Shown: positions 47,749-60,085 of the stretch, one piece after another | Numbering within the stretch: position 1 is the stretch's first letter | Layout of the letters: each line of letters opens with the position of its first letter | Assembly: GCF_036480315.1 (NCBI RefSeq) | Contig: NZ_JAZGGG010000020.1 | Location: 42,443-106,442 of the forward strand | Source: Polaribacter sp. | GTDB lineage: Bacteria; Bacteroidota; Bacteroidia; Flavobacteriales; Flavobacteriaceae | Length of the DNA: 64,000 bases | Direction: 5' to 3' | Notes under the pieces: model-generated | Told to the model about the DNA's origin: nothing | Database searches by the model: none | Seen by the model: only the letters and a program-made list of their open reading frames with translations | Position numbers and translations under genes: made by a program

Positions 47749-48828
47749 TTAAAGCTTTTTTGCTCCAAAACCGACAGTATCACAAATATACTGATTTTTT
47801 TGACAGTATTTAGACAATTGATTACCAATAAATTGACTTACCTTTTCTTTTTCATTTTCTGGAAACAATACATGTACGTTTGCGCCTGCATCTAACGTAA
47901 AACAGATGTTACTTTTGTTTTCTTGACGATATTCCCATATTTTATTGATAATTTCTAACGTATTAGGTTTCATTAAAATAAAATACGGATTACTCATTAA
48001 CATCATTGCATGCAATGTTAAGGCTTCACTTTCAACCAAACTTATAAAAGATTCTACATCTCCGTTTTGAAGAATTTCTGATATTTTAGATAAATTATCA
48101 TTCGCTTGTTTAAAACGATTTTCTGCATATGGATGATTGTGCATTAAGTTATGACCAACTGTACTAGAAACTTGCTTTTCTCCTTTATCAACCAATAAAA
48201 TTGTGTCTTGATAGTTCTCAAAAACTGAATGTACATTATAAGGAAATTGTACTCCAAATAAATCTGAACTACCTTCAATTTTTGGGTGACTTCCCCAAAC
48301 GACCATTGGTCCTTCTATACTTCTACTTGCGCTTCCAGAACCTAATCTTGCTAAAAAAGAAGCTTTTTTGTTGATAAACTCAACTGATAATTCTGATGAC
48401 AATTCGTTTTCTAAACTCATTAAACACATTGCAATTGCACTTAAACCACTTGCAGAAGAAGCTATTCCGCTAGAATGTGGAAAAGAATTTTCTGAATTGA
48501 TTATCATCTTATATTCAAAAATATAAGGACAATACTCTTGCACTCTTTTAAAGAATTCTGCAATCTTTGGCTTGAAGGCATCTTTTTGTTTTCCTTCAAA
48601 AAACAAATCGAAATCTACTTCATTTGATTTTTCCTTCTTCTCAAAATCGATGGTTGTAATTGTATGACAATTGTTTAACGTAAAACTAATAGAAGCGTTT
48701 TTAGGAATTTGAGGACTGCTCTTTCCCCAATACTTTACCAACGCAATATTACTTGGAGTTTGCCATGTAAAACTTGCTTTTTCTATTGAGTTATTTATTA
48801 ATTTCGGAATAAATTGTGCTATATTCAA
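47749..48828 (-). CDS. mvaD: Diphosphomevalonate decarboxylase
   Basis: PSNIALVKYWGK, GIASSASG, GSGSASRS, TLDAGANVH. Confidence 0.95.
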   Translation of the reverse strand: MNIAQFIPKLINNSIEKASFTWQTPSNIALVKYWGKSSPQIPKNASISFTLNNCHTITTIDFEKKEKSNEVDFDLFFEGKQKDAFKPKIAEFFKRVQEYCPYIFEYKMIINSENSFPHSSGIASSASGLSAIAMCLMSLENELSSELSVEFINKKASFLARLGSGSASRSIEGPMVVWGSHPKIEGSSDLFGVQFPYNVHSVFENYQDTILLVDKGEKQVSSTVGHNLMHNHPYAENRFKQANDNLSKISEILQNGDVESFISLVESEALTLHAMMLMSNPYFILMKPNTLEIINKIWEYRQENKSNICFTLDAGANVHVLFPENEKEKVSQFIGNQLSKYCQKNQYICDTVGFGAKKL

Positions 48829-55649: not shown

Positions 55650-56207
55650 CTATTTTTTCCATTTTATTCCACAACCCATACTAGGCTTTTGATTTTCTAA
55701 AGCAGATTTATTTTCTAATAAATTATCAAGAGCATTTCTTAAATCAATTCCTGTAACTGGTTTTCCATTTCCAGGTCTTGAATCATCTAATTGCCCATGA
55801 TAAACTGATTTTAAATCTGTGTCAAAAGCATAAAAATCTGGAGTACAAGCAGCATCGTATTTTTTTGCTATTTCTTGAGTTTCATCATATAAATAAGGAA
55901 AAGGATAGCTTTCATCTATTGCTAATTGCAGCATTAATTTTGGCGAATCTTGTGGGTAATTCTCAACATCATTAGAACTTATCGCAATAAAATTGATTCC
56001 TTTTTGTTGATATTCATTCGCCATTTTAACTAACTCATCATTTACATGAATTACAAACGGACAATGATTACATATAAACATAATTACTGTTCCTTCTTCT
56101 CCTTTTACTTTAGAAAGGGATAGAAAATTACCATCTATTGTATTGAGTAAATTAAAACTAGGAGCTGATGTTCCGTTTTTAAATTCGTTTGATTCTGTTC
56201 TTGCCAT
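55650..56207 (-). CDS. Thioredoxin family / AhpC-TSA redoxin
   Basis: FICNHCPFV, AACTPDF, PSMGCGIKW. Confidence 0.93.
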   Translation of the reverse strand: MARTESNEFKNGTSAPSFNLLNTIDGNFLSLSKVKGEEGTVIMFICNHCPFVIHVNDELVKMANEYQQKGINFIAISSNDVENYPQDSPKLMLQLAIDESYPFPYLYDETQEIAKKYDAACTPDFYAFDTDLKSVYHGQLDDSRPGNGKPVTGIDLRNALDNLLENKSALENQKPSMGCGIKWKK

Positions 56208-56211
56208 TAGA

Positions 56212-57429
56212 CTAGGAATTAGTTTCTGCTAAAGCTGTAGCGCAAATAAAACCACCAGTCCAAGCATTCTGAAAATTAAATCCACCAGTTACTGCATCAA
56301 TATTTAAAACTTCACCTACAAAGAATAAGTTGTTGTGTTTTTTACTTTCAAAACGTTTAAAGTTAATTTCTTTTAAATCTATTCCACCAGCTGTTACAAA
56401 TTCATCCTTAAATGTAGTTCTTCCATTTGCGTTATAAATTCCTTTTGTAAGTTGATTTGCCAAATTTTCTAACTGAATATTATTCAAATCCGCCCAATTT
56501 TGAGTTTTAGAAATACCCGAAAATAACACAAAACGTTCCCATAATCTTTTAGAAATCTCTGTAAAAGGTGATTTTAAAATGGCCGTTTTACGTGGCTCTT
56601 TCTTTTTTAAATTCAATAAAACATTCAAAACTTTATCCGTTGGCCTAGATAACCAATTTACTTCCACATTGTATTGATATTTTTTATCAGCCAAAATTCT
56701 TGCTCCAAAAGCAGACAGTTTTAAAATTGCTGGCCCACTCATTCCCCAATGCGTAATTAATAAAGGTCCTGAAGCTTCTAATTTTGTGCCAGAAATATTT
56801 ACAGTAGCATTCGGTACAGAAGTCCCCAGTAAATCCACCAATCTCTTATCATTAATATTAAAGGTAAATAAAGACGGAACAGGCTCTATAATAGAATGAT
56901 CTAAAGTTTCACATAATTCCCAAACCTTTTTAGAACTTCCCGCAGCAATAACTAACTTATCCGCTTTAAAAGTTTGTTCTTTAGTGTTGATAACCCATTT
57001 GTTTTCTTGTTGAAAAACAGAATTTACACCACAGTTTGTTAACACTTTAATCCCTAACTTATCAACAGATTTCTGAAAACAATCTATAATTACCTGACTT
57101 GTATTAGCTTCTGGAAATACTCTATTATCTTCTTCAATTTTTAAAGGAACTTCCCTCTCATTAAACCATTCAAAAGTATCTCCTGTCATAAATTTATGGA
57201 AAGGCCCTAACAATTCTTTTTCTCCTCTTGGATAGAACTTTACCAATTCTTTTGGCTCAAAACACGCATGCGTTACATTACATCTTCCGCCACCAGAAAT
57301 TTTTACTTTCTGTAAGACATCTTTTCCTTTTTCTAGAATAGTAATATCTAAATCCGGATTGTTTTCTTTCGCATTTATTGCTGTAAAATATCCTGCAGCT
57401 CCACCACCAATAATTATTACTTTACTCAT
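56212..57429 (-). CDS. HI0933/YhiN family flavoprotein
   Basis: GGGAAG, KVKISGGGRCNVT, VTAGG, GGFNFQNAW. Confidence 0.93.
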   Translation of the reverse strand: MSKVIIIGGGAAGYFTAINAKENNPDLDITILEKGKDVLQKVKISGGGRCNVTHACFEPKELVKFYPRGEKELLGPFHKFMTGDTFEWFNEREVPLKIEEDNRVFPEANTSQVIIDCFQKSVDKLGIKVLTNCGVNSVFQQENKWVINTKEQTFKADKLVIAAGSSKKVWELCETLDHSIIEPVPSLFTFNINDKRLVDLLGTSVPNATVNISGTKLEASGPLLITHWGMSGPAILKLSAFGARILADKKYQYNVEVNWLSRPTDKVLNVLLNLKKKEPRKTAILKSPFTEISKRLWERFVLFSGISKTQNWADLNNIQLENLANQLTKGIYNANGRTTFKDEFVTAGGIDLKEINFKRFESKKHNNLFFVGEVLNIDAVTGGFNFQNAWTGGFICATALAETNS

Positions 57430-58352
57430 AAAACCATTTCTTGATATGTAAGAATTGTTTCAAATCCTTTATTTTTAAAATATGCTGGTGTTTTAGAATT
57501 TCCTGTTACTAAAACAAAATCTCCTCCCCAAGCTCCTAAACTTTTAATTGCACCAAAATAATCTGGAAACAACTTTTCTTTTACTGTTTTTAATTTGATA
57601 ATTGAACTTATAATTTGTTCGTGTTCAATTATTAAATTTTCAAATTTTTCTAAAGAATTTATTTTTAAAAATTCATTAGAAATTTCTGAAATTCGTTCAA
57701 TTTCTTTACTAAAATTACTTCCACTTTCTCTAAACTTTGCAATGCCCTCTTTAGAATCTTGCTTCTGGTTTAAATGAACAAAAAACAAGTTTTCTTTAAA
57801 AGCCGGATTGAACTCAACTTGCTCAACTGTAGGTTTTTCATTTTCTATTTGATAAAAAATTGATGTATTGTTTTGTGCACAAGCAATATCATAACCACTC
57901 CCTTTAAAAGAATTCCACAATAATTTAAAAGCATCTACATTTGCCCAATTTGCAATTGAATTTATTAAGGTTGATGAAGTACCTAAACCCCAATTTCTTG
58001 GAAAATTCAGGTTTGTTTTTATCAAAAATCCATTTTCTGATTCTAAAAAACTAGGATTTAAGTTTTTAGCTTCTTTTAAAATCTCTAACAAAGTTTCCGC
58101 TATAATCTCTCCACTTCCTTCTTTAACTGAATTATAGTTACAACTAATCAAACGAAGTTTTGGCAAGTCAAAAATAGCTTCAAACCAACATTCTCCAGTA
58201 TGCGTAAAACTCTCCCAAATAATCTCTGGTTCTTTTATTTTTTCAACAATTAAGTCTTGCCCGAATTTAGTAGGTACAGCCAATGATTTAGTACCATCTA
58301 AAACAAGGTATTCACCTGTTAATAATAATTTTCCGTTTGAGTAAAAGTTCAT
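57426..58352 (-). CDS. GYDIA-type GHMP kinase, probable phosphomevalonate kinase
   Basis: KLLLTGEY, WGLGTSS, GSGYDIACA, KSLGAWGGDF; start overlaps the HMG-CoA reductase stop. Confidence 0.88.
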   Translation of the reverse strand: MNFYSNGKLLLTGEYLVLDGTKSLAVPTKFGQDLIVEKIKEPEIIWESFTHTGECWFEAIFDLPKLRLISCNYNSVKEGSGEIIAETLLEILKEAKNLNPSFLESENGFLIKTNLNFPRNWGLGTSSTLINSIANWANVDAFKLLWNSFKGSGYDIACAQNNTSIFYQIENEKPTVEQVEFNPAFKENLFFVHLNQKQDSKEGIAKFRESGSNFSKEIERISEISNEFLKINSLEKFENLIIEHEQIISSIIKLKTVKEKLFPDYFGAIKSLGAWGGDFVLVTGNSKTPAYFKNKGFETILTYQEMVL

Positions 58353-60085
58353 TAGATTAAATCAAATTGTTTAAAATGATGTGTAAAATGTTTCACTTGA
58401 AATTTTTTCCAATACTCAAAATCTAATTCCCCAAAAAATGGGTGAACGACTACTCTACTTTTATCTTCCTTAAAAATTTTCACAAAAATGACTACTTCCT
58501 TAATTAAATCTTCAATTGCATCTTCTATCGAATTAAATTTCAATTTTACTGGTTCTTCTGCTAAAAAAGAAGCTTTAAAACCTATTTGTAATTCATTTTT
58601 TGTATTTAAAAAAGGTTTTCTACGAGCGGTTTTATCATCAGAAACAAATACATTTATTTTCAAATTCCCGTTTGCAATTTGTGTAACTGTGCATAAATGT
58701 TCAATCATTTTCTGACTGTTCATTTTTCCAAAAACTGGTTTATCATCTACCTTTAAGGTTGATAGTTTAGTGCGAACTTCATCAAAATCTAAAAAGTCTA
58801 CCCAATTTATTGTTGGCTTTCTTAATTGATTAAATTTAGTAACAACTGCAGAATGAGAAACTGTTCTTTTATCAAAATAAGAAGTAAGTTCTGCTTTTTC
58901 TGATTCTGTTGCTCCTAATTGATTTAAAATATTCTGTAGGTGCATTTTCATATGTCCATGCTGAATTCCTTTAGTGGTAAGTGCTCTTAAAGCTGCAAAA
59001 TTCTGTGCTAAACCAGCTGCTGCTATAATTTGCATTAATGTTCTTGCAGAAGGTTTTTGTAACATTTCTAAAGAAATTTTTGCCATTGGATGCAACGCAG
59101 TTAAGCCGCCAACAGTTCCTAAAGCCAAAGGAAGTTCTATCCAAAATTTAAAAATTCCGTTTTTAATTTCACAATGCGATAAACTCGAATATTGCCCAGA
59201 ACGCGCCGCATAAGCATGAACGCCAGCTTCAACCGCTCTAAAATCGTTTCCTGTTGCTACAACTACAGCATCAATTCCGTTCATAATTCCTTTATTATGA
59301 GTTACTGCTCTATAAGGTTCTATTTCTGCAATTTTTACTGCTTGGTAAAATTTCTCTGCAAATTTTTGTGGGTTTTCGCCACCCAATTCTTCAATTTTAC
59401 AGCTCACTTCTGCCCTAACTAAACATTCTGGAACGTAGTTAGATAAAATACTCATTACAATCTCTATGTCATCATTTCTAAATTCATTTGCAATTGCTTC
59501 TAAACAAGAGTTTATAAAGTTTGCTCCCATTGAATCTTTCGTTTCAAAGGTTGCTAGTAATTGATAATAGTTTTCTAATTGATCTGTTTTATCTACTAAT
59601 TTTATGTCTAAAATTCCACCACCACGCTTTTCCATATTTTTAGTTATGGAAGCTGTAGCAGCAAATAATTCAGTTTTATTTGTGTTAAAATAATCTTCTA
59701 ATTCCTTCTTATTACCAGCAAACATAAAATGTACTTGCCCGATTTTAGTAGTACCAATTACTTTGGTTTTAAAACCACCGCGTGTACTCCAAAACTTTGC
59801 TACTAAAGATGCGGCTGCAACAACAGAGCTTTCTTCAACAACCATAGGAACAACATACGTTCTATCATTTATTATAAAATTTGGCGCAATACCAAACGGC
59901 ATATAAAAATTAGAGATGGTATTCTCTATAAAATCATCATGAAGTTGTTGTAAATCAGTATCAACATTCCAATATTGTTTTATAGTATTAACGGTTTCAG
60001 ATTTATTATTAAAGTAATTCTCTGTTAGCCACTGTATTTTTTCCTCTTTGCTAAACTTTGAAAATCCTGATATTATTTTGCTCAT
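58352..60085 (-). CDS. mvaA: Class II HMG-CoA reductase fused to a C-terminal DinB/DUF1569-like domain
   Basis: ENTIS, VEESSVVAA, DSMGAN, THNKGIMNG, GIQHGHMKMH; about 155-aa extension with KMNSQKMIEHL and HPFFG...KHFTHHFKQF. Confidence 0.92.
   Translation of the reverse strand: MSKIISGFSKFSKEEKIQWLTENYFNNKSETVNTIKQYWNVDTDLQQLHDDFIENTISNFYMPFGIAPNFIINDRTYVVPMVVEESSVVAAASLVAKFWSTRGGFKTKVIGTTKIGQVHFMFAGNKKELEDYFNTNKTELFAATASITKNMEKRGGGILDIKLVDKTDQLENYYQLLATFETKDSMGANFINSCLEAIANEFRNDDIEIVMSILSNYVPECLVRAEVSCKIEELGGENPQKFAEKFYQAVKIAEIEPYRAVTHNKGIMNGIDAVVVATGNDFRAVEAGVHAYAARSGQYSSLSHCEIKNGIFKFWIELPLALGTVGGLTALHPMAKISLEMLQKPSARTLMQIIAAAGLAQNFAALRALTTKGIQHGHMKMHLQNILNQLGATESEKAELTSYFDKRTVSHSAVVTKFNQLRKPTINWVDFLDFDEVRTKLSTLKVDDKPVFGKMNSQKMIEHLCTVTQIANGNLKINVFVSDDKTARRKPFLNTKNELQIGFKASFLAEEPVKLKFNSIEDAIEDLIKEVVIFVKIFKEDKSRVVVHPFFGELDFEYWKKFQVKHFTHHFKQFDLI

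Follow-up and report, generated by a model that had tools for sequence, protein, structure and literature searches.

Class II hydroxymethylglutaryl-CoA (HMG-CoA) reductases (HMGRs) with solved structures, such as 7n7s and the Pseudomonas mevalonii enzyme 1qax, are 423–458 amino acids (aa) long and end after a C-terminal flap. This flap, a mobile three-helix element made of the last ~53 residues, shuts over the substrates and brings the catalytic His into place, then opens again so that the cofactor can be exchanged (PMC10070635). In MvaE from Enterococcus faecalis, a class II HMGR is joined to another domain of CoA chemistry, an acetoacetyl-CoA thiolase, which is N-terminal and catalyzes the preceding step of the pathway (PMC10070635). 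Here we analyzed a stretch of 64,000 nucleotides from Polaribacter sp. (RefSeq assembly GCF_036480315.1, contig NZ_JAZGGG010000020.1, positions 42,443 to 106,442), hereafter the window, in which a single gene encodes a class II HMGR continued by a DUF1569 domain of the DinB/YfiT superfamily (Pfam clan CL0310). The protein has the full enzyme, the catalytic motifs and the three-helix flap of the solved class II HMGRs, but extends beyond the flap by 154 further residues predicted to form a second folded domain. To our knowledge, MvaE is the only well-known HMGR fusion; unlike in MvaE, the partner domain here is C-terminal, is placed on the mobile flap, and comes from a family of unknown function. 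The initial annotation, made from the sequence of the window, knew of no description of this architecture. A literature search likewise found no paper on an HMGR with a DinB or DUF1569 domain, although in the precomputed Pfam annotation these proteins already carry both domains. The gene and its parts are located in the window as follows:

58352..60085, minus strand: fused HMGR-DUF1569 gene, a single open reading frame (ORF) of 577 codons plus a TAA stop
58817..60085, minus strand: class II HMG-CoA reductase part, residues 1–423 (Pfam, NCBIfam, 7n7s alignment)
58817..58972, minus strand: HMGR flap (lid) subdomain, approximately residues 372–423, ending right at the junction (model helices and the definition in PMC10070635)
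58355..58816, minus strand: C-terminal DUF1569/DinB-fold domain, residues 424–577 (PF07606, AlphaFold, Foldseek, and the ratio of nonsynonymous to synonymous substitution rates, dN/dS)
58697..58702, minus strand: codons of E462-H463, comprising the early triad His and its invariant Glu neighbor (alignments)
58376..58393, minus strand: codons of K565-H566-F-T-H569-H570, the HxxxH half of the His triad, on the last helix (alignments)
58430..58444, minus strand: HPFFG motif, residues 548–552, in a β-hairpin preceding the last helix (alignments, model)
58616..58633, minus strand: basic patch K485-x-x-R488-R489-K490 (alignments)

The N-terminal part of the protein matches the Pfam family HMG-CoA_red (PF00368) over residues 14–382 (E 1.6e-95, 320.7 bits with a cut-off of 27), and the fused protein scores 298 bits with the class II HMGR model TIGR00532 (NCBIfam cut-off 259.95). 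The "degradative" in the NCBI name of the enzyme is merely the label of this model. The closest solved structure, 7n7s (an unfused HMGR of 450 aa), aligns to residues 5–423 (E 2e-166) and stops there, and unfused relatives terminate at an ...ELRK end corresponding to residue 423; the extension therefore comprises residues 424–577. This agrees with the in-frame extension of ~155 aa in the initial annotation, whose quoted motifs are all present in the single ORF. The HMGR motifs EESSVVAA (E84/E85), THNKGIMNG (K265), GNDFRA (D281) and GIQHGHM (H378) are retained, and across 85 fused proteins the residues given in brackets either do not vary or show at least 90% conservation; we take them to be catalytic from their presumed correspondence to E83, K267, D283 and H381 of the P. 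mevalonii enzyme. Three flap helices are found in the full-length model at residues 377–389, 394–404 and 411–421. Judged by these matches and motifs, residues 1–423 are a complete class II HMGR.

Scanned alone, the C-terminal tail matches DUF1569 (PF07606) with 30.7 bits, and within the full protein with 24.8 bits (Pfam cut-off 21), while its match to DinB_2 is weak (18.3 bits, below the cut-off of 24.8). DUF1569 has been assigned to the DinB clan by Pfam (PMC4520260). An AlphaFold model of the tail built from a 78-sequence alignment consists of four long helices (pLDDT 91.8, pTM 0.88), and its 14 best Foldseek matches in the Protein Data Bank (PDB) are all of the DinB/YfiT type (probability up to 1.0, E-values of 0.011 or higher, TM 0.45–0.59). 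The only meaningful matches are DinB/YfiT-family proteins, namely 2rd9, 2yqy, 2p1a, 1rxq, 6iz2, 2nsf, 3cex, 3dka, 8f5v and 3gor; neighbors with known function include the mycothiol S-transferase 8f5v and the mycothiol-dependent isomerase 2nsf (E ~0.5–1). A HMMER search of the PDB returned TTHA0303 (2yqy) as the sole match, weak and aligned over HPFFGEL...H..HH. The profile and the model together give good support to the tail as a DUF1569 domain with a DinB/YfiT four-helix-bundle fold, in line with the initial annotation, and the identity of the two parts of the protein is close to certain.

The conserved residues of the tail follow the DinB pattern of one His on an early helix and HxxxH on the last helix. 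Positions invariant in 21 fused sequences include E462, H463, H548-P-F-F-G, W559, K565, H566, H570, Q573 and F574. When standalone relatives (30–44% identical) are included in alignments of 31 and 78 sequences, G453, E462, H463, W559, H566, H570, Q573 and F574 are invariant, and K565 and H569 are invariant in the larger alignment and at least 90% conserved in the smaller one. The triad H463/H566/H570 is thus invariant in all three sets, contrary to the lack of His conservation that the initial annotation had named as a refutation, and by analogy with solved DinB-family proteins it probably binds a divalent metal. The HPFFG motif is invariant among the HMGR tails; H548 is no longer so once standalone relatives are included, and is replaced in some standalone proteins and in the PaaZ tails described below. 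Only the HMGR tails and P0126, the standalone protein that is their sister, have the basic patch K485/R488/R489/K490; as a speculation, this patch could contact the phosphates of CoA or NADP(H). DinB/YfiT proteins of known structure (Bacillus subtilis YfiT 1rxq, TTHA0303/TT2238 2yqy, DR0053 6iz2, 8f5v, and the mycothiol-dependent maleylpyruvate isomerase 2nsf) resemble the tail in the four-helix bundle and the early His plus HxxxH, but they share only 10–17% identity with it at a TM of ~0.5. DUF1569 also has its own signature, FG-M--Q-M-EH ... HPFFG-L---W---KHFTHHFKQF, unlike other DinB/YfiT proteins. The tail is not classed with the DinB thiol S-transferases (bacillithiol BstA/YfiT, mycothiol MST), to which its link is circumstantial, and no DUF1569 member with a solved structure or known activity was found in PDB sequence searches and the literature.

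Searching a word index with residues 400–577 gave 318 proteins. The listed ones are nearly all 577 aa long, with tails 65–81% identical, and those among them that carry names are from Polaribacter and Tenacibaculum. The genus of the window was sampled with 151 species genomes, whose record titles include both of these names. The tail is present in 90 of the 151 species at 52–100% identity, complete chromosomes included, and in these genomes it lies within an uninterrupted frame of 554–628 aa, except for two copies cut by contig ends. Not one of the 90 has an internal stop between HMGR and tail, and 20 genes chosen from the most divergent ones are all intact (574–577 aa). At a G+C content of ~29%, simple arithmetic puts the chance of 154 open codons at ~2 per million. 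The dN/dS of the tail (Nei-Gojobori) is 0.12–0.22 in the closest pairs, with a median of 0.26 over 174 pairs, and that of the catalytic part is 0.05–0.12. By these ratios the tail is translated and under constraint as a domain, though to a lesser degree than the core of the enzyme. With the frame open across the genus and a tail dN/dS of ~0.12–0.3, the extension is not a read-through into junk, as the initial annotation had argued, and the locus represents a genuine, translated, and vertically inherited gene fusion.

NCBI also holds entries of 150–164 aa named "DUF1569 domain-containing protein" for Polaribacter and Tenacibaculum. Three of them (P0282, P0288 and P0311, 154–164 aa) are exact C-terminal tails, starting at an internal GTG or ATG, of P0014, P0003/L025 and L013, which are themselves intact HMGR ORFs of 574–577 aa, so that the same DNA appears under two gene calls. 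Split genes in relatives were therefore rejected, since all three testable short entries proved to be tails of intact long ORFs; relatives with two separate genes and a stop lost only in this assembly, which the initial annotation had considered, were not encountered in the 90 tailed genomes or among these three entries.

The survey of phyletic distribution that had been proposed there confined the fusion to Polaribacter and Tenacibaculum among the family and order samples. One genome from each of 199 further genera of the family, and a sample of 401 genomes from the order (18 families, 17 besides its own), yielded no HMGR-DUF1569 fusion outside the genus of the window. In the other genera of the family, HMGR matches to the full-protein query all end at about residue 422–431, within frames of ~425–530 aa apart from three in longer frames (736–762 aa), and one incomplete genome had no match. 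An exhaustive HMMER search of 1.84 billion representative sequences produced 614 relatives of the tail. The best 150 of these include only one full-length fused representative, P0124 (575 aa), and the nearest non-fused relatives are standalone proteins of ~150 aa with 35–44% identity. In the domain tree the HMGR tails form one clade (support 90/79; 92% of bootstrap trees) with the standalone protein P0126 as its sister (support 100/99). According to this tree, the tail is derived from small standalone DUF1569 proteins.

In a tree of 83 catalytic domains, the outgroup genera and early-branching members of the genus are unfused, followed by a large supported clade of mostly fused proteins with well-supported unfused subclades nested within it; its well-supported branches require at least four state changes. 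At unfused loci HMGR usually abuts the kinase gene, and no remnants of the tail were detected there by tblastn. Five unfused loci (L054, L065, L068, L078 and L079) have spacers of 250–410 nt between HMGR and kinase, compared with an overlap or a few bases in most, and no similarity to the tail was detectable in these spacers. The order HMGR, separate DUF1569 gene, kinase, as expected before fusion, was not found in the 200 family genera or the 401 order genomes. The HMGR tree points to a single gain and no fewer than three clean losses. The simplest history is thus a single capture of a small DUF1569 gene between the HMGR and kinase genes, in an ancestor within Polaribacter/Tenacibaculum, with several clean deletions afterwards.

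A second DUF1569 fusion was found in the same family. For ~70 of the 200 genera of the family, the tail finds its best match, at 24–34% identity, in the C-terminal ~145 residues of a protein of 830–865 aa. One such gene (L002:1463-3961, genome G108) encodes Aldedh and MaoC dehydratase domains followed by the DUF1569 tail and is flanked by thiolase and enoyl-CoA hydratase genes; its domains and neighbors mark it as PaaZ-like, an enzyme of phenylacetyl-CoA catabolism that here bears an additional tail. The PaaZ tails belong to the same domain family, are also C-terminal, and retain the invariant E-H and K-H-x-x-H-H, but they are attached to a catabolic host and form their own clade (support 100/100) apart from the HMGR tails. 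DUF1569 has therefore been fused independently to two enzymes, each of them an NAD(P)-using one that converts CoA thioesters by way of an aldehyde. Derivation of the HMGR tail from a PaaZ tail was rejected on the same tree, given the separate clades and the standalone sister of the HMGR tails. The genome of the window contains no PaaZ and no second DUF1569 copy. A literature search found no paper on PaaZ with a DinB domain. Both domains of the HMGR fusion are already known, but no published description was found of the fused architecture or of its PaaZ parallel.

PaaZ-DUF1569 proteins also occur in the genus of the window (G238, G285, G245 and G220), and seven of eight such genomes lack the HMGR fusion. 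Four genus genomes with PaaZ-DUF1569 that were placed on the HMGR tree are early-branching. At L125:3001-5641, the gene for an ordinary PaaZ of 681 aa is preceded, at a distance of 128 nt, by a co-directional standalone DUF1569 gene and followed by an enoyl-CoA hydratase gene. Three standalone DUF1569 proteins of 150 aa (P0333, P0369 and P0371) are named "hydroxymethylglutaryl-CoA reductase" or "oxepin-CoA hydrolase/...dehydrogenase" by JGI, apparently because names given to the two fusion proteins were carried over to them.

BshC, an enzyme of bacillithiol synthesis, is encoded in the genome of the window, and Polaribacter MED152 has been shown to contain N-methyl-bacillithiol (PMC6282198). 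Some of the standalone DUF1569 relatives adjoin genes for thioredoxin, class I disulphide reductase, MsrB or another DinB protein.

We propose that the tail may be an accessory, non-essential, metal-dependent module for handling thiols or CoA that would act in cis on the reductase. It starts a few residues past the last helix of the mobile flap and, because of this attachment, must travel with the lid or restrain it. In this scheme the tail could bind or activate a thiol, whether the CoA-SH that is set free or a cellular thiol of the bacillithiol type. Alternatively, it might deal with thioester or aldehyde intermediates, or couple the motion of the lid, and hence isoprenoid flux, to the thiol/redox or metal state of the cell. 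A thiol/CoA module or lid gate is suggested by the metal-type site, the thiol chemistry of the DinB fold, the presence of bacillithiol-type thiols, the two fusions to CoA-thioester/aldehyde enzymes, and the dispensability of the tail. As a class of mechanism it is the likeliest of those considered here, though somewhat less likely than not. The explanation as a whole, an inherited fusion carrying an accessory thiol/CoA/lid module, is the best we have and comes near to an even chance of being right. The idea of thiol/CoA handling or of a metal/redox sensor, put forward in the initial annotation, gains indirectly from the independent PaaZ-like fusion, tempered by the repeated clean loss of the tail. 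The isoprenoid sensor also listed in the initial annotation found no support. In a more specific version, DUF1569 would be a domain that uses thiols in a metal-dependent way and that natively partners enzymes converting CoA thioesters via bound aldehydes; it would have been recruited twice independently, as a cis-acting guard on escaping aldehyde or thioester intermediates or as a thiol/redox switch of the lid. This version is rather unlikely to hold in full.

Several observations weigh against the proposed explanation. The model of the full-length monomer is poor (pLDDT 70, pTM 0.47) and gives no docking geometry for the tail. From the weak Foldseek E-values, the tail appears to be a remote branch of the DinB superfamily on which thiol-binding residues are not mappable. 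PaaZ releases no CoA, and hence the handling of free CoA-SH is not a theme shared by both fusions. The adjacency of a standalone DUF1569 gene to PaaZ is a single case, with a 61%-identical relative lacking a PaaZ neighbor, and the neighborhoods of standalone relatives are mixed, about half of them being uninformative. Each of the 106 high-quality genus genomes carries BshC whether or not it has the fusion, so that the gene does not co-vary with the tail. Finally, the tail was cleanly lost at least three times within the genus with HMGR retained; it is therefore dispensable, though useful enough to have been kept for long periods.

The same dispensability in several lineages would also fit a modulatory scaffold, in which the tail, possibly with a structural metal, dimerizes like many DinB proteins, stabilizes either the flap or a higher HMGR oligomer, and performs no ligand chemistry. 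DinB-family proteins are typically dimeric four-helix bundles; the fold of the tail is supported by its model, and the tail is attached to a mobile flap. However, conservation in the tail is highest at the residues of the classic metal site and the shell around them, which do not vary in standalone proteins or PaaZ tails either; this argues for a shared ligand or metal function over a partner-specific interface. We consider a mainly structural or assembly role unlikely.

It is still less probable that the tail is a near-neutral passenger, a small gene captured between the HMGR and kinase genes through the loss of the HMGR stop codon, which has an unrelated function or none and is kept mainly by linkage. 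Its repeated clean losses with HMGR kept, its narrow range, and the free-standing state of its nearest relatives would be expected of such a passenger. However, the frame has stayed open in 90 species down to 52% identity at a dN/dS of ~0.12–0.3, the second independent fusion to a CoA-thioester enzyme makes a chance partner less likely, and, with no other copy in its own genome, the work of the domain is done from this polypeptide.

An equally low probability attaches to one ORF with two products, in which a separate tail of ~17 kDa would be made, additionally or for the most part, from an internal start near residue 414–424 and act in trans like its standalone relatives. The NCBI entries of 150–164 aa, exact tails of the long ORFs that begin at internal GTG or ATG codons, speak for this reading, but they reflect the choices of gene callers rather than experiment; moreover, none of the 90 tailed genomes has a stop between the parts, and the junction is fixed where unfused HMGRs end. 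A sequencing or assembly artefact, with a stop lost or a frame shifted in this assembly only, has a negligible chance and is excluded by the recurrence of the intact fusion across the genus: hundreds of proteins share the architecture, and it is seen in the genomes of 90 of the 151 species, complete chromosomes included.

HMGR, the rate-setting enzyme of the mevalonate pathway, relies on its moving C-terminal flap to complete the active site. A folded, conserved, and probably metal-binding domain tethered to this flap represents a natural experiment in lid control, carried out in abundant marine bacteria that here apparently lack an alternative isoprenoid route. Were the tail a thiol-using guard or switch, it would add a new layer of control on the committed isoprenoid step in marine flavobacteria. 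For DUF1569, two independent fusions and one gene-neighbor case provide a first functional handle by tying the family to CoA-thioester/aldehyde enzymes that use NAD(P). The fusion is also a source of database errors, with standalone DUF1569 proteins misnamed and the tails of some intact fused ORFs entered separately.

The neighboring genes of the window that bear on the pathway and the operon are:

57426..58352, minus strand: GYDIA-family GHMP kinase gene (NCBIfam, 443 bits); its ATG overlaps the HMGR stop
56212..57429, minus strand: HI0933-like flavoprotein gene (Pfam); overlaps the kinase stop, same operon
55650..56207, minus strand: AhpC/TSA-Redoxin family thiol protein gene (Pfam); last in the co-directional run
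47821-48762, minus strand: diphosphomevalonate-decarboxylase-like gene (TIGR01240, 161.7 bits, just below the cut-off of 171.35)

The fused gene ends in TAATG, where the last A of the TAA stop is the first base of the kinase ATG, bearing out the overlap with a GHMP kinase start described in the initial annotation. The genes that follow HMGR (kinase, flavoprotein and redoxin) have overlapping or near-abutting ends, which supports the placement of the HMGR and its DinB/DUF1569-like His-triad domain within a translationally coupled operon. In the unfused relative G179 (L004), HMGR, kinase and flavoprotein genes are found in the identical order. The decarboxylase-like gene of the mevalonate pathway lies ~10 kb from the operon, within the window.

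No 1-deoxy-D-xylulose 5-phosphate (DXP) reductoisomerase (DXR) was found in the genome of the window (99.98% complete); the HMGR therefore serves the only isoprenoid route found there. Since no DXR was found and a mevalonate-pathway kinase and a decarboxylase-like gene are nearby, we infer a biosynthetic role for the fused HMGR. A canonical HMG-CoA synthase was likewise not found in this genome (G000) with PF01154, PF08540 and TIGR01835 (best score 29.9 bits, cut-off 360), and HMG-CoA could be supplied by a divergent synthase or by leucine catabolism.

A fused HMGR of 577 aa is also present on a contig labeled "uncultured Acidimicrobiia bacterium" (L028, CAXMOR010000015.1); its sequence is nested among those of Polaribacter, and the contig is probably a mis-binned flavobacterial one. 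DUF1569 occurs in further architectures among the relatives of the tail, including proteins of ~310 aa with two tandem DUF1569 domains (P0130, P0153 and P0175), a 322-aa protein with the domain at its C-terminus (P0196), and a 404-aa protein with the domain at its N-terminus (P0216).

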